A stretch of DNA of 64,000 nucleotides, taken from assembly GCA_964643955.1 (NCBI GenBank), contig CAZXUO010000003.1, forward strand, positions 19,865 through 83,864. Direction: 5' to 3'. The notes under the pieces are model-generated. The model worked only from the letters and a program-made list of their open reading frames with translations, was not told where the DNA came from and did no database searches. Below, one piece after another: positions 3,942 to 23,445 of the stretch; positions within the stretch are counted from its first letter, which is position 1, and each line of letters begins with the position of its first letter. Source of the DNA: an uncultured Candidatus Saccharibacteria bacterium (GTDB lineage Bacteria > Patescibacteriota > Minisyncoccia > Phycocordibacterales > UBA918). The translations under genes and the position numbers were made by a program.

Positions 3942-5375
3942 ATGCGTACGTTCAAAGTCGCACTTTTATTTGTAGGTTTATTTCTTTTCGTTTCGCCGGT
4001 ATTCGCACAAAGTAGCACAACACAGGCACAGATTGATGCGCTTCTCGCGCAAATCCGTGTCCTCCAAGAACGACTTGCGCAGATGCAAGGAAGTATGTCC
4101 TTAAAAGGATGTGTTGATCTTTCATATAATCTCTATGCTGATCGCACTGACGCGCAGACAGGCGGAGAGGTCTCGAAACTTCAAATGTTTCTCGCGCAAA
4201 CACCGCATATCTATCCATCTGGTCTTATCACAGGATATTTTGGTCCAGCCACTGAAGTAGCGGTACAAAAATGGCAGGCAGCTGCGGGTATTGTTTCGTC
4301 CGGTTCTCCAGAGACGACGGGGTATGGATATGTTGGTCCGAAGACTCGCTCGCTGATGTCGTGCGGTTCACCTATACCACAGACTATTCCTCCAGTAGTA
4401 ACCACACCTCCTATAGTAGTGTCGGAATCCTGTACCATTACCGCGAGCAAGACGAGCGTAGGGGTCGGAGAATCATATACGATCTCATGGACCACTCGAA
4501 ACATTGATGATCCCGTCATGTACGAGGAGGTCAAAGCTGGTGGTACTGTGGAAATAAATAAGCGGGGCTCGAAAGAATTTACGACGCCGTATGTTGGCAC
4601 CGATACGTATCAAATCGGCGCAGGTGGACTCAGTGCACCATATAGACCTCTTTGTTCGGTGTCGGTAACTGCTTCGGATGACGCAGTCGCAGAGATCGGC
4701 GAGGTGGATATTTCCGACAGCCGGGCACTTGAGGGAGAGATTGTGGAGTTTGAGTGGAGTATAAAAAATCCTGCTGGATCAGTGAAAATTGTCTTGAGAG
4801 AGTATGGGCGTGCTGACATTCCTGTGTATAGGGGAAGTGCGCAAGAGAGGGGACAATATAATTGGTCTGCCACACTTCCGTCAGGTAGATCAGTCTTTGG
4901 AGGCAGTGCGTATCTTGAGCTGTATAACGAAATGGGTCAAAAGATTGAGGAAGAACATATCTCTGCTCTTGCTATAAACAAGTCTTCTGATGGTCGTGAT
5001 CCTGACGTTACGGTTATTAGCCCAGACAGCGACCTGTCTGTTGGAAGAGGAGGTCAATTTTACATCAAGTGGAAGACGGATGATGTGGATCCGATGGATT
5101 ACATAGGATTCTCTCTTGTCGGCAGTGGCGGTGAGTATCCTGCAGGAGGTGGGTACTATGCAATTAATGGTACGACAGATTATGGAACAGTACAGCAAAA
5201 TGTACCAGACGGTTCTTATCGTGTGCGCGTATACGCATATCAAATAAGTTGTATGCCGCCAGAGTACGCACAAAGGTCATATGAAGAGAAAAGTGATTTC
5301 TCTCGGATGACAATGTGTCAAGATAGTCAGTATGGGTACGGTGATAGTGAAGGAATGATCACCGTTTCTCAGTAA
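3942..5375 (+). CDS. Secreted cell-surface protein: signal peptide, coiled-coil, PG_binding_1-like domain and Ig-like beta repeats
   Basis: N-terminal 'MRTFKVALLFVGLFLFVSPVFAQ' signal. 'GEVSKLQMFLAQ…GYFGPATEVAVQKWQAAAGI' matches the putative peptidoglycan-binding domain signature. Remaining sequence is Thr/Ser/Gly-rich beta-type. Confidence 0.6.
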   Translation: MRTFKVALLFVGLFLFVSPVFAQSSTTQAQIDALLAQIRVLQERLAQMQGSMSLKGCVDLSYNLYADRTDAQTGGEVSKLQMFLAQTPHIYPSGLITGYFGPATEVAVQKWQAAAGIVSSGSPETTGYGYVGPKTRSLMSCGSPIPQTIPPVVTTPPIVVSESCTITASKTSVGVGESYTISWTTRNIDDPVMYEEVKAGGTVEINKRGSKEFTTPYVGTDTYQIGAGGLSAPYRPLCSVSVTASDDAVAEIGEVDISDSRALEGEIVEFEWSIKNPAGSVKIVLREYGRADIPVYRGSAQERGQYNWSATLPSGRSVFGGSAYLELYNEMGQKIEEEHISALAINKSSDGRDPDVTVISPDSDLSVGRGGQFYIKWKTDDVDPMDYIGFSLVGSGGEYPAGGGYYAINGTTDYGTVQQNVPDGSYRVRVYAYQISCMPPEYAQRSYEEKSDFSRMTMCQDSQYGYGDSEGMITVSQ

Positions 5376-5383
5376 TACTCCGT

Positions 5384-5427
5384 AAACACACCTCTCGCGC
5401 TATGCGCGAGAGGTGTGTTTATTTTTG
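5384..5427 (+). terminator. Rho-independent terminator
   Basis: Perfect 17-bp inverted repeat aaacacacctctcgcgc / gcgcgagaggtgtgttt followed by ATTTTTG. Confidence 0.7.
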
Positions 5428-5441
5428 CTATACTGCTCTCC

Positions 5442-6320
5442 ATGAAGCCGGAAGACGTACAGAAACGTGTAGCGGAAATTGAGGCGGCAATGCTTGCGCC
5501 GGATTTTTGGAATGATTCTCGAAAAGCACAAGCACTCATTAAAGAGCTTCAAGAACTCAAGGAGCAAGCTGCTGGAAAAGGAAAATATGATCGCAACAAC
5601 GCGATTGTGACTATTGTGGCCGGCGCCGGTGGCGATGATGCCGAAGATTTTGCGCGCATGCTCGTGGAGATGTATCAGCGGTACGCTGAGGGGCGCAACT
5701 GGAGCGTCGGCATACTTGATGAAAATAGGAATGATCACAATGGGTATCGAAACATCGTACTAGAGATTGCAGGGAAGAATGCGTACGGGACATTGAAGCG
5801 TGAGTCGGGTGTGCATCGCCTCGTGCGCATGTCGCCATTTAATGCGTCGGGCAAACGGCAAACATCGTTTGTATTGGTCGAAGTGTCGCCAAAATTTGAA
5901 TCGCAAGAGGCTGCGGTTTTGAATGAAGATGATCTTGAGGTGTCATTTGCACGCTCGGGTGGCGCGGGCGGCCAAAATGTAAACAAACGTGAGACAGCGG
6001 TACGTATCGTACACAAGCCGACCAATATTTCTGTGAATGTTTCCTCTGAACGGAGCCAACAGCAGAATAAAGAGCGCGCGCTCGCGCTCATCGCGGGCAA
6101 GCTCTATGCTTTCGAGGAGGCGCAGCGCGCGCGTGAACAGCAGGGTCTTGCCGTGGAAAAGAGCGTAAAAATCGAATGGGGAAGCCAAATACGTTCGTAT
6201 GTCCTCCACCCATATCAGCTTGTAAAAGATCATCGTACCGACGTCGAGGTCCGTGATACGGATCGGGTGCTCGGAGGAGATATTTCGATGTTCCTCGACG
6301 CAGAAGCGCAGGTGGAGTAA
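5442..6320 (+). CDS. prfB: Peptide chain release factor 2, short form with a truncated N-terminal domain 1 and no programmed +1 frameshift
   Basis: SPF tripeptide ('[15 protein letters not shown]') and GGQ motif ('[18 protein letters not shown]'). '[24 protein letters not shown]' matches the RF2 domain-2 start. The ATG at 5442 is preferred over the tool's GTG at 5415, which lies inside the terminator hairpin. Confidence 0.85.
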
Positions 6321-6349
6321 AATAGTCAGGTTACAAGGTGTGCACGTTT

Positions 6350-7033
6350 ATGATCTATTTCGACAACGTATCAAAGGTATACAACAATAGAGGATCCGTG
6401 GCACTTGAAGATGTCACGTTCCAAGTTGCACCGGGTGAATTTGTCTCCATTGTCGGTCATTCAGGAGCGGGAAAGACGACGCTCATAAAGATGCTTATCG
6501 TTGAAGATCGTCCGACGTCCGGCACGGTCTTTTTTGAGTCGCTCGATGTGCACAGTATTCCGCACGGTCGTCTTCCACAGTATCGTCGCAAGATTGGTAC
6601 GGTCTTTCAGGATTTCAAACTGCTCCCGCACAAGACGGCGTATGAAAATATCGCATTTGCCATGGAGGCAAATGGTCGCACAGAAGAGGAGATTATAGAA
6701 AATGTGCCGCAGGCACTTGAGCTCGTCGATCTTGCCGACAAGATGGATAATTTCCCCGGAGAGCTCTCAGGTGGCGAGAAGCAGCGGGTCGCCATCGCGC
6801 GCGCGATCGTCAATCAGCCCGAGCTCATCATCGCCGACGAGCCGACCGGCAACCTTGATCCGATCGCAACGTACGAGGTGGTGCAGATTTTGAAGAAGAT
6901 CAATGATCTCGGCACGACTGTCATTATGACGACGCACAATAAAGGGGTGATTGACGCACTCGGACGCCGCGTGATCACGATGGATGGAGGTCGAATTGTT
7001 CGCGATGACAATGAGGGCCGGTACGTGCTTTAA
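6350..7033 (+). CDS. ftsE: Cell-division ABC ATPase FtsE
   Basis: Walker A 'GHSGAGKTT', signature 'LSGGEKQRVAIARA', Walker B 'LIIADEPTGNLD'. Conserved pairing with the downstream ftsX. Confidence 0.85.
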   Translation: MIYFDNVSKVYNNRGSVALEDVTFQVAPGEFVSIVGHSGAGKTTLIKMLIVEDRPTSGTVFFESLDVHSIPHGRLPQYRRKIGTVFQDFKLLPHKTAYENIAFAMEANGRTEEEIIENVPQALELVDLADKMDNFPGELSGGEKQRVAIARAIVNQPELIIADEPTGNLDPIATYEVVQILKKINDLGTTVIMTTHNKGVIDALGRRVITMDGGRIVRDDNEGRYVL

Positions 7034-7987
7034 TTGAACAGATATATGTGGACCACATTCAAACGAATAGTGCGGGGAGGCGTGATTAATTTTTGGCGCA
7101 ATGCGTTTGTTTCTTTTGCTTCTGTTCTCGTGATGACCATTGCGCTCTTTATGGTCGCAACGACGATGTTCAATAACCACTCGCTTGAAGCAGCGCTCGG
7201 AGAGCTTCAAGAAAAAGTTGATATCAATATTTATTTCCTCACGACAGCTCCCGAGGAGCGTATTATGGCGCTGAAGGGCGAGCTTGAGAGTTTCCCGGAG
7301 GTTGCTGAAGTGACATACACGTCGCGAGAACAGGCACTTGAAAATTTTAAAGCGCGTCACATCGACGATGAGCTCACGATTCAGGCGCTCAATGAGCTCG
7401 GTGACAACCCGCTTGGAGCAGTGCTCTCGGTTCGCGCTCGCGAGACCTCACAGTACGAGGGCATTGCCACTTACCTCGAGGAGCAGCGTGCTGCAGCTTC
7501 CGCTGAAACCGCGGTGATTGATCGTGTAAATTATTTCCAAAACAAATCAGCGATCGAGCGACTCACCGAAATCATCAACGACACACGCGACAACAACACC
7601 ATGAAGACGATTTTCCTCGTCATCGTCGCGCTCATTGTCGCCTTCAATACTATCCGCCTTGCGATTCACAATTCTCGTGAAGAAATCGGTGTGATGCGAC
7701 TCGTTGGTGCGTCAAATACGTATATCAGCAGTCCATTTATCATTACGGGTATCATGCAGGGTCTCATTGCGGGCGTGCTCGTACTTATTTTGCTCTATCC
7801 TGCACTCATCTTTTACGAAGGTGCGTTCTATCCATTCCCATTCTTTGATGAAGTAGGGTACGACGGACTCCTGTTCAATCATTTTGTGAATGATTTTCCA
7901 AAGATCTTCTTTACGATCGTTGGTAGTGGCATTCTTATTGGTGCAGTTTCAAGTTTCCTCGCGGTACGGCGATATCTTCATATCTAA
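7034..7987 (+). CDS. ftsX: Cell-division permease-like FtsX (TTG start at 7034; ATG alternative at 7046)
   Basis: N-terminal TM, large extracytoplasmic domain, then three C-terminal TM helices. Immediately follows ftsE. Confidence 0.7.
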   Translation: MNRYMWTTFKRIVRGGVINFWRNAFVSFASVLVMTIALFMVATTMFNNHSLEAALGELQEKVDINIYFLTTAPEERIMALKGELESFPEVAEVTYTSREQALENFKARHIDDELTIQALNELGDNPLGAVLSVRARETSQYEGIATYLEEQRAAASAETAVIDRVNYFQNKSAIERLTEIINDTRDNNTMKTIFLVIVALIVAFNTIRLAIHNSREEIGVMRLVGASNTYISSPFIITGIMQGLIAGVLVLILLYPALIFYEGAFYPFPFFDEVGYDGLLFNHFVNDFPKIFFTIVGSGILIGAVSSFLAVRRYLHI

Positions 7988-7990
7988 CCT

Positions 7991-9673
7991 ATGGCGCGCG
8001 CACAACGAACGACACGGAGCACCAACAAACACAGGAAATACATCTTCATCGTCGGCGGTGTCATGTCGGGAGTCGGCAAAGGTATTGCCGCTTCTTCTAT
8101 TGCGCATATCCTTCAGGCGCGCGGGCTTGTCGTGACGGCGATGAAGATCGATCCGTATATCAACGTGGACGCAGGTACGATGAATCCGACCGAGCACGGA
8201 GAAGTGTTTGTGCTTAAGGATGGCCTCGAGACGGATCAGGACATGGGTAACTATGAGCGTTTTCTCAATATCGACATTCCGAGCGCCAACTACATGACGA
8301 CCGGCAGCGTGTACCAGGAAGTCATCCGTCGTGAACGCAACCTCGAGTACGGAGGCAAGAATGTGGAGGTAGTACCCGATATTCCGCTTGAAGTTATCCG
8401 TCGCATCACAAAGGCGGGCGAGCTCGCGAAGGCACATGTGGTGATCACCGAGATCGGCGGCACCGTCGGTGAGTATCAAAATATTCTTTTCCTCGAGGCG
8501 GTCCGTATGATGAAGAGTCGTGCGCCGCAGAGTGTCGCCACGGTGCTCGTGAGCTACTTGCCGGTGCCGGGTTCGATCGGTGAGATGAAAACCAAGCCGA
8601 CGCAGTATGCGGCGCGTACGCTCAATAGCGCGGGTGTTTTTGCAGATGTGATCATCGCGCGCGCACCTGTCGCGATTGATCAGAAACGAAAAGAAAAAAT
8701 TGCGACGTTCTGCAACGTATCACCGGAGCATGTGATTGCTGCGCCTGATGTTGCAAGTATCTACGATGTGCCGATTAATTTTGAAAAAGACAATCTCTCG
8801 AAAAAACTCTGCGATCTGCTTTCGATAAAGAAGTGTAAAGGTACGGCGGATCTTGCTCCGTGGAAATCGTTTGTTGCGAAGTCAAAGAATACAAAGGGAA
8901 GCGTGAAGATCGCCGTGGTAGGGAAGTATTTTGATTCAGGTGACTTCGTCCTCTCGGACGTGTATATCTCAGTACTTGAGGCCATCAAGTCTGCGGCGTA
9001 CCACGAAGGGGTGAAGCCTGAGATTGACTACCTCTCGTCGGTGAAATTTGAAAAAGGATTGATGCCACTCTCGACACTCGACCATTACGACGGGGTACTT
9101 ATTCCTGGCGGATTCGGTTCAACGGGTATTGAGGGAAAAATAAAAGTGATTGAGTATGTGCGAAAGAAAAAGATTCCATACTTCGGCATTTGCTACGGCA
9201 TGCAGCTTGCGGTCGTTGAGTATGCGCGCAATATGTTGGGACTGAAGGGAGCATCGACTGGTGAGATTGATCCGAAGTCAAAGTATCTCGTGGTGGATGT
9301 GATGCTCGAACAAAAAGAGAAGATCGCAAAGAATGAGATGGGAGGTACGATGCGACTCGGTGAATATCCCGCGCATCTTGCAAAAGGAAGTATCGCCCGC
9401 GCGGCGTACGGAAAGGATGTCATCATTGAGCGCCACCGTCATCGCTATGAGGTGAATCCCGAGTATGTCGAGCGCCTCCGCGCGGGCGGCGCCATTTTCT
9501 CAGGCACCTCTCCAGATGGTCGTCTCATGGAAATCATGGAGCTCCCAAAAGAAAAACACCCATTTTTTGTAGGTGTCCAGTTTCATCCAGAATTTCACGC
9601 GCGACCACTTGCTCCGCATCCGATCTTTCGAGCGTTCATAGAAGCGTCGAAGAAAAACAGGAAAGTTAAATAG
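7991..9673 (+). CDS. pyrG: CTP synthase
   Basis: 'KYIFIVGGVMSGVGKGIAASS' N-terminal synthetase motif. C-terminal class-I glutamine amidotransferase 'GILIPGGFG…GICYGMQ' with the catalytic Cys. 560 aa. Confidence 0.95.
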   Translation: MARAQRTTRSTNKHRKYIFIVGGVMSGVGKGIAASSIAHILQARGLVVTAMKIDPYINVDAGTMNPTEHGEVFVLKDGLETDQDMGNYERFLNIDIPSANYMTTGSVYQEVIRRERNLEYGGKNVEVVPDIPLEVIRRITKAGELAKAHVVITEIGGTVGEYQNILFLEAVRMMKSRAPQSVATVLVSYLPVPGSIGEMKTKPTQYAARTLNSAGVFADVIIARAPVAIDQKRKEKIATFCNVSPEHVIAAPDVASIYDVPINFEKDNLSKKLCDLLSIKKCKGTADLAPWKSFVAKSKNTKGSVKIAVVGKYFDSGDFVLSDVYISVLEAIKSAAYHEGVKPEIDYLSSVKFEKGLMPLSTLDHYDGVLIPGGFGSTGIEGKIKVIEYVRKKKIPYFGICYGMQLAVVEYARNMLGLKGASTGEIDPKSKYLVVDVMLEQKEKIAKNEMGGTMRLGEYPAHLAKGSIARAAYGKDVIIERHRHRYEVNPEYVERLRAGGAIFSGTSPDGRLMEIMELPKEKHPFFVGVQFHPEFHARPLAPHPIFRAFIEASKKNRKVK

Positions 9674-10236: not shown

Positions 10237-10327
10237 TTTTTATCTTGCGACAGAAGCGATCCGTTTATCCGATAAATTTGAATTATTTTATTTATCGCGT
10301 CCATACTTCTGTTACAATTATTCGGTC

Positions 10328-12412
10328 ATGGAACTTTTTTCATACATGGGGCTGCACACAGCCTATCTATTTATCTTTTCGATTGGGCTAGCGCTTGGCA
10401 TTGGCGCGTCAGCTCTGAGTTACGCACTCTTTCTATTTGCAGGGCGAGACGGGCGCATATCGAAGGATGAGTTGGCTCTACTTTCGCTTTCTCGCAAGAC
10501 GGTATGGACTGCGTTTCTTTTGTATGGATTTAGTGGTATAGGGCTTTTCTCGCTCGCCTATGAATCAATGCTCTCTCTCGGCATCTTTTACGCAAGTATG
10601 ACGGTCGCGGCAATTCTTGTCGCGACCGAGCTTGCGTTTAGCTTCCGACATTTACCACGCGTACGGGATACGCGAGATGGAAGCGTGGCTCTTGATGCGT
10701 TCCTTCTCGAGAGCGGAGTCATCTCTGTCATTTCGTGGGTATTTCTTATGTTCCATCACGTAATCTATCGGACCGACATTGGCTATTTTGCGTTCATGGC
10801 TCTCTACACGGGCGCGCTTGCATTCGGGATGCTTGTTACGTGGGTAATCAGGCGCACGTCCATTCGTAGAAGCGATACGAAGATACTGAAGCGATCCATG
10901 ATTGCCGCGATTATGCTCGCGATCTGCTTTGGTGCCGCGTGGTTATTGGGTATCAGTACAATTGTCGATCCAGCGCAGATTGGAAAGGGTATCGTGCAGA
11001 ATGTAACTGGTACGAATTATACTGTTGACGACGTAGCACTCCACAACAACTCAGAGGACTGCTGGCTCATTATTGACGGCAAGGTATTCAATGCGACCGA
11101 GGCTTCAAAGCTGCACCCAGCCATGTTTGCGTGTGGTACTGATGTGAGCCTTAATTACCACAAGAATCACGGAGAGATTATTCGTGACAAGATGATGAAG
11201 TTCTATATCGGTGAACTTGGGGACGAGACCGGTGTTAAAAATGTTGACATTCCCTTTAAAAAACATGAGAACTTGAAGCCCTATCGCGAGCTGTATGCAA
11301 AGGAAGGTACGTGGGATCCCCATAATCTGATGCTCGTTGTTGAGAAAGATGAGGAAAAGCTCTTGGCGATAGATGGGTCGACGCATGAACTAGTCGGCCG
11401 GATCCATGAAGTTGGATTTCAGCCGCACACCTCGGTTTTCTCGTCGGATGCCGTATACATGTTCATCATCTCTCGCGACGGCTGGCTCACTAAGATCGAC
11501 CTTCGAACGCTCGAGCTGGTACGGACGGTGCATGTTGGGGAGAACTCGCGCGGCACCGCTCTTACGGATAATGACAAGTACGTCGCAATTGGAAACTACG
11601 CTCCGGGCAACCTGGTCATTCTCGACGCTGACACTATGGAGATGAAAAAGACTATACCCCTTGTCGAAGAGGTGAATGGAAAGGCCATTGAATCGCGCGC
11701 GGGCGCAGTCGTAGAGGATGGCAATCGCATTATCGTAGCACTAAAAGACGCTACGAGTGTCTGGGCGATTGATACAGACAATCCAGATTTCCCCGTCACA
11801 CATAAATTTAGAGACATTGGAGATAATGTCCCCGCACTGCACGATGCGTTTCTAACGCCAGGAGGATCGCACTACATAGTCGCCTCCCAAGGATCAAAGA
11901 CTGCATGGGTTCTCGATCTTGCGACTATGAAGCCGATTGCTGAAGTGGAGACTGGAGAGACGCCGCACACGGGTCCTGGAGCCGCGTGGGGTAACTACAT
12001 CTACATTCCTTCGCTTGGAGAAGGTCTCATCACCGTCATTGATACGACTACCTGGAAGACAGCCAAGTACATAAAGACAGGTGGCCCGGGGTTATTTGTG
12101 CGCAGCTACAGCAAGGATCCGTCGTATCCGTATGTATGGGCAGATACAGCATTTGGCGACCGCAAGGATGAGATATACGTTATCGATGGGCGAGTGAATG
12201 AGATAGTAAAGACCATCATTCCCGTGAAGGGAGAGAGCTCATGGCACCCAGAATTTACGTACGATGGAAAATTCGTGTACGTTGTCTCACCTTCGGCAAA
12301 TGAAGTTGAAGTATATGATGCGTACACGTTTGAGTTGATAAAACGCATTCCATCACAGATGCCATCAGCTATATCGAATGTGGGCCTTCGTATTGAGGAG
12401 CCGGGACTCTAA
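10328..12412 (+). CDS. Membrane-anchored cytochrome b5-like / cd1-nitrite-reductase-type (NirS/NirN/NirF-like) d1 beta-propeller fusion protein
   Basis: ~215-aa N-terminal multi-TM region. Then a cyt-b5-like heme domain ('LHNNSEDCWLIIDGKVFNATEASKLHPAMFACG', both axial His positions present). Then ~390 aa that align by eye to the NirS d1 domain ('FIISRDGWLTKIDL', 'YVAIGNYAPGNLVILDADTME', 'ETGETPHTGPGAAWGNYIY', 'GGPGLFVRSYSKDPSYPYVWADTAF'). Extended −10 TGTTACAAT lies 9 nt before the ATG. Confidence 0.6.
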   Translation: MELFSYMGLHTAYLFIFSIGLALGIGASALSYALFLFAGRDGRISKDELALLSLSRKTVWTAFLLYGFSGIGLFSLAYESMLSLGIFYASMTVAAILVATELAFSFRHLPRVRDTRDGSVALDAFLLESGVISVISWVFLMFHHVIYRTDIGYFAFMALYTGALAFGMLVTWVIRRTSIRRSDTKILKRSMIAAIMLAICFGAAWLLGISTIVDPAQIGKGIVQNVTGTNYTVDDVALHNNSEDCWLIIDGKVFNATEASKLHPAMFACGTDVSLNYHKNHGEIIRDKMMKFYIGELGDETGVKNVDIPFKKHENLKPYRELYAKEGTWDPHNLMLVVEKDEEKLLAIDGSTHELVGRIHEVGFQPHTSVFSSDAVYMFIISRDGWLTKIDLRTLELVRTVHVGENSRGTALTDNDKYVAIGNYAPGNLVILDADTMEMKKTIPLVEEVNGKAIESRAGAVVEDGNRIIVALKDATSVWAIDTDNPDFPVTHKFRDIGDNVPALHDAFLTPGGSHYIVASQGSKTAWVLDLATMKPIAEVETGETPHTGPGAAWGNYIYIPSLGEGLITVIDTTTWKTAKYIKTGGPGLFVRSYSKDPSYPYVWADTAFGDRKDEIYVIDGRVNEIVKTIIPVKGESSWHPEFTYDGKFVYVVSPSANEVEVYDAYTFELIKRIPSQMPSAISNVGLRIEEPGL

Positions 12413-14430: not shown

Positions 14431-15072
14431 CTAGAATCCCTTGAATTCCCAGACCACTGCCTTTCCGTCTGTAAGTTCGTACTGGTCTGCCCCGACCATC
14501 GGCGTTTCTCCATCCACCTGATACTGCCAGTAGTTCCCGTCGGTACCGTTTACAAGTCCGCCCATCGCGGTCACCAATATCCCCATATCTCCGTAGTCCT
14601 CGGTCGCAAGGTCAAGGTCCGGGTCAGTTGCATCGAGGCGTGTCAGAAGTTCAAGCACAGTTTCGCCGCTCTCGATTGGCGTGGTCGTTGCTTCGTATAC
14701 GCCTTCGATGGTGAGTGTTACGGTGTCGACCTCCTCTTCTTCCGTTTCGGTTTCGTTCGTGTACGTATTGTTCGTGACGTAATACGTGCGCGAAGTACGT
14801 GAACTCTCGTTGGATGTTTGGGCTGGCGCAGACTCCGTTGTAGCAAGCGTAGAGGTAGCAATTATCACATTGACTGTGATGACTGGTGGTGCTAGTTGGG
14901 GGGACGAGTTCTCAATGATAATTGGAGCGGTTGAGGGCGTTGACGTTGAAGTTACAAACACTTGAATGGGTGGTGTCTGTACGTCCGCTCTCGTACCGTT
15001 GCCATAGGTGAAGAGAAGTCCCACGACAAGAGTGAAGACTGAGAATACTGCGAGCCATGTGTAATCTTTCAT
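14431..15072 (-). CDS. Membrane-anchored surface protein with C-terminal DUF4430 domain (transcobalamin-like B12-binding fold)
   Basis: N-terminal TM, Thr/Ser-rich linker, then 'ILVTAMGGLVNGTDGNYWQYQVDGETPMVGADQYELTDGKAVVWEF' typical of DUF4430. Confidence 0.6.
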   Translation of the reverse strand: MKDYTWLAVFSVFTLVVGLLFTYGNGTRADVQTPPIQVFVTSTSTPSTAPIIIENSSPQLAPPVITVNVIIATSTLATTESAPAQTSNESSRTSRTYYVTNNTYTNETETEEEEVDTVTLTIEGVYEATTTPIESGETVLELLTRLDATDPDLDLATEDYGDMGILVTAMGGLVNGTDGNYWQYQVDGETPMVGADQYELTDGKAVVWEFKGF

Positions 15073-15090: not shown

Positions 15091-15612
15091 CTAATAAGTA
15101 GGCGACTTCTCTGCGTTTCCGCTTGTCTGCGCATCACGCCGCGCAAGCGCATAGAAGAAACTTGAGAGCCGATTGAGGAATGCGTTGAGCTCGATTGAAT
15201 CTTCTAGGCGTGCCCGCACGACTGCGCGTTCGGTTCGCCGCGTCACGGTTCGGGCGAAATCAAAGAGGGCTGAAAGCATGGTCGCGCCAGGGACGACAAA
15301 TGATGTTGGCTTCTCTATGGTCGTTTCGATAGAGTCGATGACGGTCTCAAGTGCGTTTACATGCGTATTCGTCACTCGCATCGTCGAACCGGCAAGCTGC
15401 GCTTGCGCGATGAAAAGAACTTCCTGTACCTGCTCTAGTTCATCCGCAGTTTCCTTATGGTCTTCGCGTACATATGCTTTGCAGAGCCCGGTGAGTGAAT
15501 TGAGCTCGTCGATGCTACCTAAAGCTTCAAACAAGGGGTGGTCCTTCGAAACACGCTCCTTAGTTCCAAAGAGTCCTGATGTACCGTTATCTCCTTTGCG
15601 GGTGTACAACAT
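15091..15612 (-). CDS. ATP:cob(I)alamin adenosyltransferase, PduO type
   Basis: N-terminal 'MLYTRKGDNGTSGLFG' matches the PduO-type 'IYTRTGDxGxT' motif; 173 aa. Confidence 0.8.
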   Translation of the reverse strand: MLYTRKGDNGTSGLFGTKERVSKDHPLFEALGSIDELNSLTGLCKAYVREDHKETADELEQVQEVLFIAQAQLAGSTMRVTNTHVNALETVIDSIETTIEKPTSFVVPGATMLSALFDFARTVTRRTERAVVRARLEDSIELNAFLNRLSSFFYALARRDAQTSGNAEKSPTY

Positions 15613-15616
15613 ATTT

Positions 15617-17956
15617 TTACTGTGTTGCGGCTGCTTCTAACGATTCGACAGGTAGCGTCATATCGACCTCGCATGTACCGCCAGCACAGGCTAGCTCGCG
15701 CTTTTGTTCCGTTTCGTCCGCATGTTCATACACGAGTAACTTCGAGTAATCAACAGCAGGTATTTTTTTTGCCATTTCCTCGTACTGTTCTTTAGTAATC
15801 GTCTCGTACGGTGCAAGTCGATAGACATGATCGAAGCGCGGTAGGAACGAAAGCCCGCCGATGATATCCCAATTCTTTTGCACCCAGTCAACAACGCTAA
15901 TCCACTCATCTTCTCCGACTGATATCGTCGCAGATGGATTGTGCTCTGTGTAATTGAGTTTGACCGTTTTCCAGTATTCGAGTTGTTCGAGCGCTGAGAA
16001 GTCGTCCTTGAATCTAGCGTTTCCTGGAGACTCAATCGGGAATTCTAAGACAAAAGTCGTCGCGTTCTCTTCTGTCTGGCCGACTTCCGGATGGTAGGGA
16101 ACTCCTTGATCTTTCAGCATTTTGAATAGAGAGTCGGTTGCTGATATGCGCACGCGCCGAATGTAATATTTTGCATGACGCGGATGAATACCAGAAGAGC
16201 AGTTGAATGTTTGCGAGACTGTTCCCGAGGGTTTTACAGCAGTAACTGAGAGGGATGGCTTAATCCCAAAACGTTTCGCATACACCTCATTGGTTCTGAC
16301 AGCTATGTCGCGCATTGCCTGCATTGCCTCGGGATTGCGTGCTGTCTCGGAATCCCACTGTCCCGTTACGGAAACTCCTAAAAGACGTTCCTCTTCGCAA
16401 TGTTCCGTCCAATCCTTGGAGATGTAGTTAAAGCGTGACAAAGAAGACTGATATGTACCAAGAAGCGATGCCAACCGGGCCTTTCGCACCAAGCTCTCAA
16501 GAGTGTCATCTTCGCGAGCGATAATTTCCGATAGATTACAGAACTGTTTCGATTGCAGAATAATCTCGCCGCATGGGTTAGTGCCTATAGGCCCCTGCAC
16601 CACACCATCTTCGCCGATGAATCCAACACTTTTGAAATACTTTTCACGTCGCTTCGGTAATGTATTTGCAAGCGATCCACGATTAAAGATTCCTCGTTCA
16701 CCAGATCCGCTTTTCATCAGGGCGACCCACTCTTCCATGAGTTCATTACTCGTCGGTCTCGTTCCATACACAGCTGAATTGTTCGCAACAGAACGATGCG
16801 GTTCCGCGAGGAAGAACTGGCCCTTTTTTGCATCACGCATATCAACGTCATCGAGGTCGGAGAGGCTGATCATGGCAGTTCGCCGCACGCCTCCCGACAC
16901 AACGCACTCGCCGATTTTGCATACGATGTCGTGGACATCAATCGGGCGCAGTCGTCTGCCTTGTCGTCTCAATATCTTTTCGCGTGCAAAAGCGAGAAGC
17001 GACTGAAGCGGTTCCGGTCCGGATGCTTTGCCTCCCATTGTTTTCAAACGTGCACCTGCCGGACGAATAAGGGAAAAATCAAAATTTATATCATTTCCTG
17101 CGTACCAAGTTTTGAGTCCAAGTGTTAGCGCGTCGCACCATCCCTCTTTGGAATCTGCTACGGCATGGGTCGGTAACTTTTTCTTTTGAGACTGTTTCTG
17201 TATTTGAGGCAGCTGTTCTATATTCTGGCTTTCAACTGCGAACCCAACACCGCATCCTTGCATGGAAAGATACATAATCTCCGCGAAGTCTTGGAGAGCT
17301 GCCGGAGCAATAAATGTGCAGTTATAGGCGCAAGTATTACAGCGACGCGCAGGTTCGCCCGCAAACTGCATCAGGCGCATTGAAGGCATGACCTCTTGCT
17401 TGAGAATTGCTTCACGCACTTCTGTGTACTCTTCTTCAGAGAGCTTATCGCCAAGATTCTCGCGCATAAACGCTACATAACGATCCACCGTCTCAACCCA
17501 TGTCTCGCGTCGCTTTTCGGCATCAATCCAGCGAGCATACGTGCGCAGGTAGACAAATTCACCCAGAGGGTTTCCTGCAAAGTATTTTTTGCTTTCCGCA
17601 GTCAAAGCACGAACATGATCTGGCACTTCACCTATTTCAAACCGCTTCTCTGCGCGCTCAGCACGGTACAAAATATATGCCTTTGCTGATTTAAGAAAGC
17701 CAAGCATCATAAGTTCTGTTTCTACTTCGTCCTGCACACCTTCAACGGTAGGGACAAAGTGCTCGTCGGCGCGTTTCTTTGCTTCGAGTTTCTTTTCAAC
17801 TGCACGAGCAACCGTCTTCATGGCGCTTTCCTCAAATTCACCAACTGATCTCATTGCTTTACTGATTGCAACTGCGATCTTCTCCCTCTCAAAGGGAACA
17901 GTGGTACCATTTCGCTTTATAATGCAGGTAATTTTGGGGAAAGTGGTTTGCGACAT
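15617..17956 (-). CDS. nrdJ: Ribonucleotide reductase class II (adenosylcobalamin-dependent, NrdJ) with N-terminal ATP-cone
   Basis: ATP-cone 'IKRNGTTVPFEREKIAVAI', 'LRTYARW', active-site 'TNPCGEI', C-terminal Cys pair 'CAGGTCEVD'; 779 aa. Confidence 0.85.
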   Translation of the reverse strand: MSQTTFPKITCIIKRNGTTVPFEREKIAVAISKAMRSVGEFEESAMKTVARAVEKKLEAKKRADEHFVPTVEGVQDEVETELMMLGFLKSAKAYILYRAERAEKRFEIGEVPDHVRALTAESKKYFAGNPLGEFVYLRTYARWIDAEKRRETWVETVDRYVAFMRENLGDKLSEEEYTEVREAILKQEVMPSMRLMQFAGEPARRCNTCAYNCTFIAPAALQDFAEIMYLSMQGCGVGFAVESQNIEQLPQIQKQSQKKKLPTHAVADSKEGWCDALTLGLKTWYAGNDINFDFSLIRPAGARLKTMGGKASGPEPLQSLLAFAREKILRRQGRRLRPIDVHDIVCKIGECVVSGGVRRTAMISLSDLDDVDMRDAKKGQFFLAEPHRSVANNSAVYGTRPTSNELMEEWVALMKSGSGERGIFNRGSLANTLPKRREKYFKSVGFIGEDGVVQGPIGTNPCGEIILQSKQFCNLSEIIAREDDTLESLVRKARLASLLGTYQSSLSRFNYISKDWTEHCEEERLLGVSVTGQWDSETARNPEAMQAMRDIAVRTNEVYAKRFGIKPSLSVTAVKPSGTVSQTFNCSSGIHPRHAKYYIRRVRISATDSLFKMLKDQGVPYHPEVGQTEENATTFVLEFPIESPGNARFKDDFSALEQLEYWKTVKLNYTEHNPSATISVGEDEWISVVDWVQKNWDIIGGLSFLPRFDHVYRLAPYETITKEQYEEMAKKIPAVDYSKLLVYEHADETEQKRELACAGGTCEVDMTLPVESLEAAATQ

Positions 17957-18013
17957 ATCGATGAATACGTTATATTGATAATGGTCTATGTATTATAATA
18001 TAGATGAGTATCT
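17957..18013. promoter_or_regulatory. AT-rich divergent promoter region between nrdJ (−) and the arsR–nirK operon (+)
   Basis: 57 bp with a palindromic 'tattataata' usable as −10 in both directions. No Shine-Dalgarno on either side. Confidence 0.5.
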
Positions 18014-18385
18014 ATGAATAAGAAAAAGTTGGGGAAAACGAATACTATTAAGCAGGGCGACACGAAAAATTCGGGCCGTACATACCCTCGCCCGTCGTGG
18101 GTGCCTAAAACCGTTTTAGGCGAGGAAGAACTGTGCCCTGATTGCTTTAAGGTTGTCGGAGAGAGAAGCCGCTATAATCTTGTGTGTACGTTGGGTAAGA
18201 ATGCAGAGGGTATGACGGTTGGCGAATTGACTGAAACCATGAAGTTGCGTCAGCCTACGGTTACGCATCATTTGCAAGTTCTTCGTTCCGTCGATGCTGT
18301 TGAGATGGAACCGCGAGGTCGGGAACGTATTTACAAACTTAATCGAGGAGCGCACTGCTTCGAAGAGTGTAAAATCCCTTATTAA
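18014..18385 (+). CDS. ArsR/SmtB-family transcriptional regulator with extra Cys pairs (CPDC…HCFEEC)
   Basis: wHTH recognition helix 'LRQPTVTHHLQVLRSVDAV' (ArsR 'QPTVSHHL' signature). The stop lies 6 nt before the nirK start. Confidence 0.7.
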   Translation: MNKKKLGKTNTIKQGDTKNSGRTYPRPSWVPKTVLGEEELCPDCFKVVGERSRYNLVCTLGKNAEGMTVGELTETMKLRQPTVTHHLQVLRSVDAVEMEPRGRERIYKLNRGAHCFEECKIPY

Positions 18386-18391
18386 CATTCT

Positions 18392-19612
18392 ATGGAACTA
18401 TTTTCATATCTTTGGCAGTATCTAGTGGGGGGCTTCGGTCTTGTGATCGCGTACGGCTTCGCGGCGATATTTATTTTTCTTGTGTTGCGCCAGTTCCATT
18501 CATGGAAAATCACTACAGCACTTGTCGCTATTTTTATAGGTGCCTCGATTGCCTTTTATGTTCCAAACGGTATTCCTCATGCATTTGAATATCCTCTGGG
18601 ACTCCGCACCTTTGGACCTTCCGAAGGTCCCGTTCTGCCGCTTTCAAATGTATTTTCGTTCTTGAAGAATTTCAGCTCGTTTGAGCGTGTCGCGAATATT
18701 GCCCGCAATCCCGATGACGTACCAGGCACAGCCGTGCAGAGTGTAGACGGTATCGTTGAAATCAACCTGGTTGCAAAGGAGGTGGTCGGTGAGATGGCCG
18801 ATGGAGTGACGTTTAACTATTGGACATTTGATGGCACCGTTCCAGGCCCATTCTTGCGAGTGCGCGAAGGCGATACGATTCGTCTAACACTTACGAACGA
18901 TCCATCGAGTCTGCATCATCACTCAATCGATCTTCATGCAGTAACTGGTCCAGGAGGAGGAGCGGCCGCCACTATAGTCGCGCCTGGCGAAAGCAAAACG
19001 ATAACGTTCAAGGCTTTGAATCCTGGCATTTTCATTTATCACTGCGCACATCCGAATGTTGCAAATCACATGGCACATGGGATGTATGGATTAATTCTTG
19101 TTGAGCCAGAGGAAGGACTACCTCCCGCAGACAAAGAATTTTACCTTGTGCAAGGTGAATTCTACAGTTCAGGATCACTTGGCCGTAAAGGACTTCAACT
19201 CTTTGACGCCCAGGCGATGCTTGAAGGGAAGCCACAATACATCGTTTTCAACGGCAAAACCGGCGCACTTGTTGATAATATGAAAGCCGATGTGGGTGAC
19301 ACCGTTCGCCTATATATTGGTAATGGCGGAGTCAATCTTATCTCCAGCTTCCACGTGATTGGCGAGATTTTTGACCGCGTATACCGAGAGGGAGACCTAG
19401 TAACTCCTCCTGCACAGAGCGTGCAGACTACGTTAGTTCCAGCTGGAGGCGCTGCAATGGTTGAGTTTAAGGTTGATTACCCGGGTAATTACGTTCTTGT
19501 TGACCACGCACTCTCTCGACTTGATCGTGGCGCGTGGGGAGTCCTGCATGTTGAGGGAGAAGCAGACCCAATGATTTTCGATGGAGAGATACAGAGCGGT
19601 CACGGACATTAA
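18392..19612 (+). CDS. nirK: Copper-containing nitrite reductase NirK with N-terminal two-TM anchor
   Basis: 'HHHSIDLHAVTGPGGGAA…PGIFIYHCAHPNVANHMAHGMYGLILVEP' carries the type-1 and type-2 Cu ligand pattern (H-x4-H, HC, H, M). Two cupredoxin domains. N-terminus 'MELFSY…' is hydrophobic. Confidence 0.85.
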   Translation: MELFSYLWQYLVGGFGLVIAYGFAAIFIFLVLRQFHSWKITTALVAIFIGASIAFYVPNGIPHAFEYPLGLRTFGPSEGPVLPLSNVFSFLKNFSSFERVANIARNPDDVPGTAVQSVDGIVEINLVAKEVVGEMADGVTFNYWTFDGTVPGPFLRVREGDTIRLTLTNDPSSLHHHSIDLHAVTGPGGGAAATIVAPGESKTITFKALNPGIFIYHCAHPNVANHMAHGMYGLILVEPEEGLPPADKEFYLVQGEFYSSGSLGRKGLQLFDAQAMLEGKPQYIVFNGKTGALVDNMKADVGDTVRLYIGNGGVNLISSFHVIGEIFDRVYREGDLVTPPAQSVQTTLVPAGGAAMVEFKVDYPGNYVLVDHALSRLDRGAWGVLHVEGEADPMIFDGEIQSGHGH

Positions 19613-19634: not shown

Positions 19635-19976
19635 CTAAATTAAGCTCAGTTTTTTCTCTTTAAGAAGCATCCTGCTTCTTAGGTGGCTCAGCAATTCTCG
19701 CTTCTCGTACATCGGGCGCTTCCGTAAGATGTACTTTGCGTAATTCCGGATATCTATTTCCTTGATTTTTACCTTTTCCTTAACTTCGCGCCCTAGCACC
19801 GATTCTTGGAATTCATTGTGCGCCAATATCTCAGCTTTAATCCTGTCTTTCATTCCGATCTCGTCCAACGACACAGTATCGAGTATTTCCGCTAGCTGTT
19901 CGGTCAGTTCCTCCTCCCGGATGTAGCCGCATGGGCAATCCTTATCCCTGAATTTCGTGCATCCGTAGTGGGACAT
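19635..19976 (-). pseudogene. Remnant of a large serine recombinase (C-terminal zinc-ribbon and coiled-coil only)
   Basis: 'YGCTKFRDKDCPCGYIREEELTEQLAEIL…' resembles the recombinase zinc-beta-ribbon and coiled-coil region. No catalytic resolvase domain upstream. Sits in a ~42%-GC islet. Confidence 0.45.
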
Positions 19977-21129: not shown

Positions 21130-21630
21130 ATGAACAAGCTCACGGGAATCATTTTAGGAATCGTCATCATCATAATCATTGCAGGTGTTGCATATGCGTC
21201 GCTCATGCAGCGTGAGGACGAGATGGTCGATGCAAAGATGGAAGAGGCAGGCATGATGGATGAAAAGATGATGTCACCAGAAGACGAGAAGATGATGGCT
21301 GATGAAAAAGAGATGGCCGCGCCAGGAGTTTATGAATCGTATGCGCCCGAGAAGCTCGCGCGAGCAGAGACGGGCGACGTCGTGTTGTTCTTCCACGCAT
21401 CGTGGTGCCCTTCGTGCCGCGGACTCAATGCAGATATTGAGAAAAATCTCGATGCAATACCGTCTGGGGTAAATATCTTGAAGGTGGATTATGACTCAGA
21501 GACAGAGCTCAAGAAGAAGTACGGCATTACCTACCAGCACACACTCGTGCAGGTTGCGGCCGACGGCACGATGATTAATAAGTGGAGCGGCAGTCCAACG
21601 CTCAGTAGCGTAGTCTCAAACATCAATTAA
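21130..21630 (+). CDS. Membrane-anchored thioredoxin-like protein (TlpA/ResA-like, WCPSC active site) with a Met/Glu/Asp-rich linker
   Basis: TM helix 'LTGIILGIVIIIIIAGVAYA'. Linker 'MVDAKMEEAGMMDEKMMSPEDEKMMADEKEMAAP' has 11 Met in 34 aa. Thioredoxin fold with 'FHASWCPSCRG'. Confidence 0.7.
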   Translation: MNKLTGIILGIVIIIIIAGVAYASLMQREDEMVDAKMEEAGMMDEKMMSPEDEKMMADEKEMAAPGVYESYAPEKLARAETGDVVLFFHASWCPSCRGLNADIEKNLDAIPSGVNILKVDYDSETELKKKYGITYQHTLVQVAADGTMINKWSGSPTLSSVVSNIN

Positions 21631-23445
21631 ATGATTTTTTTCGGCATCTCAGTACTCGCAGGTATCTTCACCGTCGTTGCGCCTTGTATATTGCCGCTTC
21701 TCCCGGTGGTGATGGGCGCATCAGAGACGGGTGATCGGCATGTTGGGAAGCGGGCGCTCATCGTCATTGGTGCGCTCTCGCTCTCGGTCATCATCTTCAC
21801 GCTTTTACTCAAAGCAACAACCCTCCTCATTGGTATTCCGCAAGTATTCTGGAGTTGGTTTTCTGGTAGTATCATCATCGCCGTAGGGTTTGCGATCACG
21901 TTTCCTTCATGGTGGGCGCGCGTGCCATACATTAATAAAGTGAGTGTACTCAGCAATCAGGCGGTCGGTGCGGGATATCAGAAGAAAAGTTATACCGGTG
22001 ATGCGCTGATGGGACTTGCGCTCGGTCCAGTTTTTACCACGTGCTCACCGACATACCTCTTCATTATTGCGACCGCGCTCCCTGCGACGTTTGCAACCGG
22101 CCTTTTGTATCTCTTCGGCTTCACGTTTGGGCTTGCTCTCTCACTTCTTGTGATTGCGTATTTTGGACAAACGCTCATCAATGCGTTGAATGCGCGCATG
22201 GATACTGCCGGAAGGGCGAAGCAAGTATTCGGGATTCTCATCATCGTGGTCGGGGTTTTGATCGTGACTGGTTTTGATAAAAAGATAGAGGCGTACATCC
22301 TCGATTCCGGCTATGGCGCGACGATACAATTAGAAAATAAACTCATCGAGCAATTTGCTCCCACATCTATGTCGACAAAAGAAGCACGCACGAGTGGTGG
22401 TGCCTACGAAACGATCACGCTCGCAGGAGGTTGTTTCTGGTGTACCGAGGCGTACTTTCAAGAACAAGAGGGAGTCATTGATGCAGTGTCGGGATATGCA
22501 GGTGGAGACGAATCGACTGCGTCGTATCTCGTGGTTGCGCAAGGTACGACGAAGCATCGAGAGGCAGTACAGGTGACGTACGACCCAGAAATTATTTCTA
22601 CTGAAAAGATTCTCGATATTTATTGGTCACACATCGATCCGACAAATACGGTCGGACAGTTTGCTGATGAGGGTTTCCAGTACACAAGCGCAATCTTTTA
22701 TCACACCGATGAGCAGCATGCGGTTGCGCATGATTCCAAGAATCGACTTGAAGTGAGTGGTCTCTTTGATAAACCAATTGCAACTGAAATTCTTCCGTTC
22801 AGTACTTTCTTTAAGGCGGAGGAGTATCATCAGGACTATTATAAGAAGGCGTCCGATCATTATGAGCGGTACAAGGAAGCGTCGGGTCGCGCTGGATTTG
22901 TCGAGGAGACGTGGGCGAAAGATGCAGCTATTCAATTTTTAGAATCGGAAGAAACAAAAACTATGAACACAAACGAGTCGTCGAAGAGTGACAACAAGTA
23001 CGAGTATACCGATGAGGAAATTGCAGAAAAGTTAAAAAACCTTGATCCACTTGCGTATCATGTGGTTGCTGAAAATGGTACCGAGTCACCATTTAATAAC
23101 GCCTACTGGGATAATAAGGCGGACGGCATCTATGTGGACATCGTGACAGGTAAGCCGCTGTTTTCGAGCACGCATAAGTATGACTCGGGTACCGGCTGGC
23201 CAAGTTTCTGGAGGACTATCGATGATGATTCGGTGACGATGCATGAAGATAATTCGCTTTCAACGACCCGCACCGAAATACGAACTGAGGCAGGGCATGT
23301 CGGGCATGTGTTTGAGGATGGGCCCGCAGAAGAAGGGGGAAGGAGATTTTGTACCAACTCCGCATCACTTCGGTTTGTACCAAAAGCGGACATGGAAAGA
23401 GAAGGATATGGTCAGTACCTGTATCTCTTCACGGAATCAGTTTAG
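21631..23445 (+). CDS. msrAB: CcdA-MsrA-MsrB tri-domain fusion (membrane thiol-disulfide transporter fused to both methionine sulfoxide reductases)
   Basis: N-terminal ~230-aa CcdA/DsbD-type domain with Cys in TM helices ('VVAPCILPLLP', 'FTTCSPTYLF'). MsrA motif 'LAGGCFWCTE'. MsrB domain 'GTGWPSF…HVGHVFEDGP…RFCTNSASLRF'. Start ATG overlaps the upstream stop (TAAATGA). Confidence 0.85.
   Translation: MIFFGISVLAGIFTVVAPCILPLLPVVMGASETGDRHVGKRALIVIGALSLSVIIFTLLLKATTLLIGIPQVFWSWFSGSIIIAVGFAITFPSWWARVPYINKVSVLSNQAVGAGYQKKSYTGDALMGLALGPVFTTCSPTYLFIIATALPATFATGLLYLFGFTFGLALSLLVIAYFGQTLINALNARMDTAGRAKQVFGILIIVVGVLIVTGFDKKIEAYILDSGYGATIQLENKLIEQFAPTSMSTKEARTSGGAYETITLAGGCFWCTEAYFQEQEGVIDAVSGYAGGDESTASYLVVAQGTTKHREAVQVTYDPEIISTEKILDIYWSHIDPTNTVGQFADEGFQYTSAIFYHTDEQHAVAHDSKNRLEVSGLFDKPIATEILPFSTFFKAEEYHQDYYKKASDHYERYKEASGRAGFVEETWAKDAAIQFLESEETKTMNTNESSKSDNKYEYTDEEIAEKLKNLDPLAYHVVAENGTESPFNNAYWDNKADGIYVDIVTGKPLFSSTHKYDSGTGWPSFWRTIDDDSVTMHEDNSLSTTRTEIRTEAGHVGHVFEDGPAEEGGRRFCTNSASLRFVPKADMEREGYGQYLYLFTESV

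Follow-up and report, generated by a model that had tools for sequence, protein, structure and literature searches.

The window analysed here is a stretch of 64,000 nucleotides from an uncultured Candidatus Saccharibacteria bacterium (assembly GCA_964643955.1, contig CAZXUO010000003.1, positions 19,865 to 83,864), whose nearest proteins come from assemblies labelled "Patescibacteria group", "Parcubacteria" and "Kaiserbacteria"; the genome is of a Paceibacteria/Kaiserbacteria-like kind within the Patescibacteria. It holds a small ArsR-type regulator gene that lies head to head with nrdJ, a ribonucleotide reductase (RNR) gene, and directly upstream of nirK, which encodes a copper nitrite reductase. 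The object of interest is a compact, sharply conserved candidate RNR/NirK switch of an atypical, putative ArsR-type repressor with four cysteines (Cys4), and not a common membrane anchor of two nitrite-reductase-type proteins.

Gene order around the regulator

The locus is organised as two units facing away from a short spacer.

18014-18385, plus strand: ArsR-type Cys4(His) regulator, 123 aa, TAA stop (Pfam HTH_20/HTH_5, NF033788)
18392-19612, plus strand: nirK, copper-containing nitrite reductase, 406 aa (TIGR02376 above cut-off; PDB 6THE)
17957-18013, unstranded: divergent control region between nrdJ and the regulator gene, 57 bp (inverted repeats; 60 intergenic sequences)
15617-17956, minus strand: nrdJ, adenosylcobalamin-dependent class II RNR with an N-terminal ATP-cone (Pfam ATP-cone, RNR_Alpha and RNR-II_ins_dom; TIGR02505 RTPR, E 2e-93)
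15091-15612, minus strand: pduO-type cobalamin adenosyltransferase (Pfam)
14431-15072, minus strand: DUF4430 protein (Pfam)
13899 to ~14429, minus strand: DUF6580 membrane protein (Pfam)

The original prediction, made from the sequence alone, described this layout correctly. The regulator's reading frame ends at 18385, 6 nt ahead of the nirK ATG at 18392, and nrdJ diverges from the regulator across a spacer that does hold inverted repeats. The two genes were predicted to be co-transcribed, and this is supported by the short gap, which in some 40 further loci usually measures 3-30 nt. On the other side of the spacer, the block nrdJ-pduO-DUF4430-DUF6580 is syntenic in 11 genome loci and is likely an operon for B12 uptake and activation (capture, adenosylation and use). 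No cobalamin riboswitch was found there, Rfam returning only three tRNAs over the whole window, and the nrdJ leader is no longer than about 30 nt. The B12-related genes of this operon appear to be regulated by a protein.

We gathered 80 metagenome loci anchored on the regulator gene and based the linkage counts on the 53 with at least 1.5 kb of upstream sequence, confirming the RNR classes with Pfam. A divergent RNR gene was present in 49 of the 53 (92%), distributed as follows.

Class II NrdJ, divergent upstream: 23 of 53 loci
Class III NrdD, divergent upstream: 20 of 53 loci
Class I small subunit NrdB with a fused ATP-cone, divergent upstream: 6 of 53 loci
No divergent RNR gene upstream: 4 of 53 loci

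By comparison, nirK lay directly downstream of the regulator in 16 of the 53 loci (30%), spread across all three RNR classes; where it is absent, the regulator is mostly followed by unrelated and often convergent genes. With 49 loci against 16, the constant partner of the regulator is therefore the RNR gene, and NirK is optional. Viewed from NirK instead, the regulator stands directly upstream in 24 of about 76 Patescibacteria species genomes, often with DUF6580-DUF4430-pduO-nrdJ on its other side, and the neighbours of NirK elsewhere are heterogeneous. We also looked for another regulator, for instance of the Rrf2/NsrR type, before nirK in loci lacking the ArsR-type gene, where the largest neighbour clusters had just three members.

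The optional genes occur in several positions. At three loci nirK closes the nrdJ operon (L096, L120, L132). A gene for a NirS-like membrane protein, which has a counterpart in the window, lies between the regulator and nirK in an arsR-NirS-like-nirK operon at L112 (NirS-like gene at 6115-8196) and directly downstream of the tandem operator boxes described below at L149 (3443-5524). Separately transcribed pduO genes with a box of their own were found at L036 and L051.

The class I small subunits that face the regulator combine an ATP-cone with the small-subunit domain (PF03477 + PF00268; L084 at 939-2237, L126 at 4611-5885 and four other loci). An N-terminal ATP-cone on a class I small subunit is an unusual arrangement that has been described for Leeuwenhoekiella (PMC5794259).

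Operator boxes in the divergent spacer

A search for inverted repeats in 17957-18013 had been proposed as a check, and it yielded two 16-bp palindromes of the pattern ATWGAY-N4-RTCTAT.

17974-17989, unstranded: operator box A, ATTGATAATGGTCTAT, a 6-4-6 palindrome
18000-18015, unstranded: operator box B, ATAGATGAGTATCTAT, a perfect 6-4-6 palindrome that ends on the AT of the regulator's ATG (its last two bases)

The arrangement (G/A)WTATATTGATAA-N3-TCTAT-N10-ATAGAY-N4-RTCT|ATG recurs in 60 distinct intergenic sequences. The spacer measures about 55-59 bp at most loci, and almost every base of it is kept from species to species and between RNR classes, so the earlier suggestion that the regulator may control both divergent units fits the pattern of conservation. 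Box A overlaps a conserved TATATTGATAA element (17971-17981) that resembles a -10 or extended -10 promoter element of the regulator gene (recurrent TGnTATATT). Box B overlaps the regulator's start codon and what looks like a mirror-image TATATT/TATAAT on the other strand, directed towards nrdJ.

The distribution of the boxes follows the regulator closely. Tandem boxes precede 79 of the 98 regulator genes with enough upstream sequence and none of 56 loci without a regulator; most regulator genes without the standard pair have just one box or boxes set further apart. The box starts are separated by 26-27 bp in 73 of 81 tandem pairs, leaving 10-11 bp between the boxes. The boxes are kept where the regulator has no adjacent RNR gene (L006, L057, L058), and RNR genes without a regulator have none (L007, L034, L008). 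Elsewhere in 1.8 Mb of neighbourhoods we found 54 matches to a single box and no tandem site away from a regulator gene; this rarity argues against a general promoter motif. The window contains no second tandem site. Its only other single matches, at 383 and 63111, fall inside open reading frames (ORFs), and allowing two mismatches brought up no further box ahead of the NirS-like, ldcA, thioredoxin-like or pduO genes.

Boxes also precede the genes of more distant relatives of the regulator. In this wider clade of 85-99 aa proteins the CxxC...CxxxC pattern and the recognition helix QPT[VI]THHL are kept and H114 is not. Five of the seven distant Cys4 relatives have a palindrome, ATAGAY-N4-RTCTAT, just before or overlapping their own ATG (four exact, L166 with one mismatch), with neighbours unrelated to RNR, and at L168 the box has the same register relative to the ATG as box B. 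Taken together, the tandem distribution, the tracking of the regulator independently of RNR genes, the boxes of the distant relatives and the rarity of matches elsewhere indicate that the boxes belong to the regulator.

At one locus from a Kaiserbacteria genome (L018, 5068-5636) the spacer between nrdJ and the regulator is 568 bp long and carries the control module twice, one copy beside each gene.

The regulator and the proposed switch

The predicted fold of the regulator is the ArsR/SmtB winged helix-turn-helix, with helices alpha1-alpha4 and a beta wing. Pfam HTH_20 (32.8 bits) and HTH_5 (27.9 bits) both score over their cut-offs, and the NCBIfam ArsR/SmtB subfamily model NF033788 is passed narrowly (58.1 bits against a cut-off of 55). 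Profile searches of the PDB match CzrA, ArsR and SmtB over regulator residues 40-109 only, the alignments stopping at 109-112. The best Foldseek matches of the AlphaFold2 model (predicted local distance difference test score, pLDDT, 77.7) are all ArsR/SmtB proteins: 3F6O, HlyU, SrnR, BigR, SmtB and CadC, with root-mean-square deviations of 1.1-2.2 A over 68-78 columns. The regulator thus resembles CzrA, SmtB, ArsR, CadC, BigR/SqrR and HlyU in its winged-helix core, recognition helix and small size. It is also like them in having a palindromic operator over its apparent promoter and a divergent or operon layout with its putative targets.

The resemblance ends with the sensor sites. From the N-terminus the protein consists of a Lys-rich disordered tail with a conserved RPxWVP, helix 1 with C41xxC44 at its N-cap, the recognition helix QPTVTHHLQVL, the wing and H114-C115xxxC119, shortly before its end. 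The two extra Cys pairs noted in the original prediction, C41-P-D-C44 and H114-C115-F-E-E-C119, are therefore both present, and the CxxC before helix 1, the HCxxxC past the wing and the Lys-rich tail set the regulator apart from the characterised family members, as does an RNR gene as its putative target. Helix alpha5, through which ArsR/SmtB proteins dimerise and which also carries their classical alpha5 metal site, is missing because the protein stops 14 residues after the wing; the model shows just a 4-residue helix at 114-117. Classical ligands in the family lie in alpha3 (ELCVCDL), at a Cys in alpha3N, in alpha5 (DxH...HxxH) and in alpha4C. When the regulator is compared with characterised ArsR/SmtB sensors, the alpha3 CVC, alpha3N and alpha5 sets are all absent: opposite the CVC region the aligned helix has the sequence MTVGELTE, and no Cys occupies the alpha3 or alpha3N positions. 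The Cys pair of BigR is lacking too, as the BigR/SqrR model NF040642 gives 36 bits against a cut-off of 155 and the Cys positions differ. No ATP-cone was matched in the regulator by Pfam or NCBIfam. Its own candidate site is strongly conserved. All of 121 homologs keep C41, C58, H114, C115, C119, P27 and W29; at position 44, 120 of them have Cys and one has Ser.

Building on the gene order, conservation, box distribution and fold, we infer that the regulator is probably an autorepressor that acts on both the nrdJ-B12 operon and arsR-nirK. The ArsR-fold repressor would bind the two ATWGAY-N4-RTCTAT palindromes, presumably one dimer per box, and would silence nrdJ-pduO-DUF4430-DUF6580 and arsR-nirK together, because the boxes cover the likely -10 and start regions of both units and the regulator's start codon. 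With a 6-nt gap and neither a promoter nor a box of its own, nirK would depend for its expression entirely on the autoregulated transcript, in which it comes second. The constant target across Patescibacteria would be the RNR gene, of whichever class, with nirK and sometimes the NirS-like gene as optional passengers.

Release from DNA would probably be triggered at the invariant candidate site, formed by C41/C44, where helix 1 begins, and by H114/C115/C119 after the wing, the latter three in the place of the alpha5 helix of the rest of the family. The site might hold a Zn-thiolate or Fe-S (iron-sulfur) centre responsive to the oxidation of thiols, to reactive sulfur or to nitric oxide (NO). 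The distant relatives at L162-L169 precede genes for membrane thioredoxin (Trx)-like/VKOR/DoxX proteins, a YgaP-like transmembrane (TM) protein and IscS-IscU, and these thiol-redox and IscS-IscU neighbours point to a signal related to thiols, sulfur or Fe-S. NO is attractive as a signal because NirK makes NO, and NO inactivates both RNRs and cobalamin. A Zn-thiolate or Fe-S centre that loses affinity for DNA on oxidation, persulfidation or nitrosylation is the most likely of the mechanisms we considered, and we propose it tentatively; classical metal sensing is much less likely.

Cluster- and thiol-based sensors typically precede Fe-S or thiol-redox genes, and the Cys4 relatives, with their IscS-IscU, YgaP-like and Trx/VKOR/DoxX neighbours, resemble SufR, IscR, NsrR and YgaV in this respect. 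IscR and NsrR are Rrf2-family proteins, and the Cys motif of SufR presumably has a different spacing and position from that of the regulator. The Cys4 clade, as far as can be judged from sequence, suggests a wider, undescribed sensory branch of the ArsR/SmtB family.

Several points weigh against the proposed switch. Its support is entirely comparative, and there is no clear physiological reason for linking NirK to RNR. In two thirds of cases a NirK gene is found in some other setting than the regulator arrangement. The promoter hexamers are ambiguous, with just 13 bp from TTGATA to TATAAT, and a generic scan for sigma-70 promoters and terminators gave nothing above shuffled sequences. The thiol/Fe-S theme comes from seven distant loci only. 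The search for NrdR, the regulator considered next, covered only the 1.8 Mb of neighbourhoods, so its absence from these genomes is not established.

Control of bacterial RNR genes is thought to run mainly through NrdR. NrdR boxes are a pair of 16-bp sites at RNR promoters with a spacer of 15-16 or 25-26 bp, and of the spacers tested, from 12 to 27 bp, only those of 14-17 and 24-27 bp bound efficiently (PMC12051234). The system described here is like NrdR in its paired 16-bp palindromes over RNR promoters, its association with all three RNR classes, its apparent self-control, which is frequent for NrdR, and its four-Cys motif (PMC9110341, PMC12051234). It differs in that the regulator is a winged helix-turn-helix protein with neither a Zn-ribbon nor an ATP-cone, and so has no nucleotide-sensing domain, in its shorter spacer of 10-11 bp, and in a putative regulon that also takes in nirK, the NirS-like gene and B12 genes. 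The half-site ATAGAT also differs from what we take to be the NrdR consensus.

The likeness to NrdR sites, together with an AT-rich region containing TATAAT/TATATT-like hexamers, could mean that the ArsR-type gene merely adjoins a spacer conserved for another reason, as a strong promoter in both directions or as the site of a different factor, for instance NrdR. However, the boxes follow the presence of the regulator gene, not that of RNR genes, recur before the distant relatives in non-RNR contexts, and are rare singly and never tandem apart from regulator genes. Their 10-11 bp spacer is below the range tested for NrdR, and no NrdR-like small ATP-cone ORF was found in the 1.8 Mb of neighbourhoods in a weak check with an approximate E. 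coli NrdR query. We consider this explanation very improbable. A regulator dedicated to nirK, sensing metal (Cu/Zn) or nitrite/NO and linked to nrdJ only incidentally, would account for the 6-nt coupling here and the small gaps elsewhere, for the Cys/His motifs, and for the fact that NirK is a copper enzyme. It is difficult to reconcile with the linkage counts, in which nirK is downstream in about 30% of loci against 92% with a facing RNR gene, or with the persistence of regulator and boxes where nirK is absent and the lack of tandem boxes at nirK genes without the regulator. The missing alpha3 CVC, alpha3N and alpha5 ligand sets, and the missing alpha5 helix itself, also argue against a dedicated metal sensor. 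The original prediction had suggested metal or redox sensing; a regulator of this kind dedicated to nirK now seems improbable.

The Cys4 ArsR-type protein may also be more than a local repressor. In Patescibacteria it could fill the role of NrdR, as a master switch that works through a cluster or thiols and sets deoxyribonucleotide supply by NO, thiol or Fe-S status instead of nucleotide pools, with NirK and the b5-d1 (NirS-like) protein as deliberate members of its regulon. We regard this extension as speculative and rather unlikely. If it is true, the role of nitrite reductase in the Candidate Phyla Radiation (CPR), for long without an explanation, would be tied to the synthesis or protection of DNA precursors and not to respiration.

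An incomplete literature search found no ArsR-type regulator linked to RNR, CPR included, and nothing on NrdR in CPR or Patescibacteria. If the autorepressor reading is true, a major uncultured radiation would have solved RNR control in a second way beside NrdR, through a Cys-based regulator on genes of all three classes, with a sharply defined operator at hand for testing. It would also place Parcubacteria NirK in a defined regulatory unit, and turn the question of why fermenters carry NirK into that of which signal releases the repressor.

As candidates for NrdR we also considered 155-aa ORFs before unlinked nrdJ genes; by eye these are GatB/YqeY-like, DUF192-like or membrane proteins.

NirK, the NirS-like protein and neighbouring genes

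The two nitrite-reductase-type proteins of the window are anchored differently.

18392-18571, plus strand: NirK anchor, two helices, residues 1-60 (hydropathy; 117 full-length homologs)
Within 18392-19612, plus strand: NirK linker, then two cupredoxin domains, residues ~100-400 (TIGR02376, 6THE)
10328-12412, plus strand: NirS-like membrane protein (Pfam Cytochrom_D1, 230 bits, and Cyt-b5)

NirK scores 334 bits with the equivalog model TIGR02376 (cut-off 296). In enzymes of this type the type 1 copper (T1Cu) is held by His, Cys, His and Met and the type 2 copper (T2Cu) by three His. All these ligands, with the catalytic Asp and His, are identical in 6THE (E 4e-105), and the motifs HSIDLH, YHCAHPNVANHMAHGM, FHVIGE and VDHAL are kept. 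Other structural relatives are 2DV6 and AniA (1KBV). NirK in Parcubacteria was already known and its physiological role has been called questionable (Danczak et al. 2017, PMC5581439). The window enzyme belongs to the same, distinct CPR clade with conserved Cu ligands; that paper does not mention a two-helix anchor, an ME-phi-phi-SY tail or a link to an RNR regulon.

The original prediction that NirK is anchored by two N-terminal TM helices, and not exported by a cleavable signal peptide, agrees with hydropathy. Hydrophobic segments at about 9-33 and 39-60 flank a basic loop, RQFHSWK, and the two-helix anchor is conserved in 117 full-length homologs. By hydropathy alone no cleavable Sec/Tat or lipoprotein signal was recognised, the acidic MELFSY start having no basic n-region.

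The NirS-like protein combines about six TM helices with a cytochrome b5 domain and a cytochrome-d1-type beta-propeller (PF02239, 230 bits). Unlike cytochrome cd1 NirS, it has no c-type cytochrome domain detectable by Pfam, and no operator box lies upstream of its gene in the window. It is widespread in Patescibacteria, with 218 homologs, many of 694 aa.

The near-identity first noticed between the starts of the two genes is real: ATGGAACTATTTTCATATC (18392) and ATGGAACTTTTTTCATACA (10328) match at 16 of 19 nt, and both encode MELFSY. A degenerate 18-mer of the common start occurs only at these two sites of the window (0.00 expected from shuffles). The start M-[ED]-hydrophobic-hydrophobic-x-[YF] is found in 98 of 117 full-length NirK and 68 of 111 NirS-like homologs and, over all frames of the 1.8 Mb of loci, in these two families only. 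As the hexapeptide is conserved in both families, the match is not due to chance. Such figures might suggest a recombined or common anchor module, as had been proposed. But the likeness is confined to the first residues: BLASTP of NirK against the NirS-like protein aligned 7 residues, hhalign of the N-terminal family profiles aligned columns 1-7 only (probability 5.8%), and an alignment of 300 bp of DNA around each start found no similarity upstream or past codon 6. NirK proteins 94-96% identical to that of the window start with MDLLSY, and the architectures differ, with two TM helices against about six. Because homology ends after 6-7 residues, the anchor module is unsupported, and we think it improbable that one was exchanged or shared. 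A short acidic N-out tail under a common insertion or interaction constraint explains MELFSY better. Both tails are acidic and the loop past the first helix is basic (RQFHSWK in NirK, GRDGRISKDE...SRK in the NirS-like protein), which by the positive-inside rule fits an N-out topology with the catalytic domains outside the cell.

No Shine-Dalgarno sequence is recognisable before nirK, the regulator gene, nrdJ or the NirS-like gene (18386-18391, 18000-18013, 17957-17970 and 10313-10327, respectively), and the leaders appear very short.

At 21130-23445, 1.5 kb from nirK and with no operator box nearby, lie genes for a thioredoxin-like protein with a membrane anchor (WCPSC) and, after it, for a protein of 604 aa. 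By eye the second is a CcdA-like membrane domain fused to MsrA and MsrB; the pair would form an extracytoplasmic thiol-repair module. Convergent with nirK lies a 113-aa ORF (19635-19976, minus strand) without a Pfam match, which recurs at 42-47% identity in the NirK/regulator loci L001, L009, L064 and L107, at L009 right after nirK.

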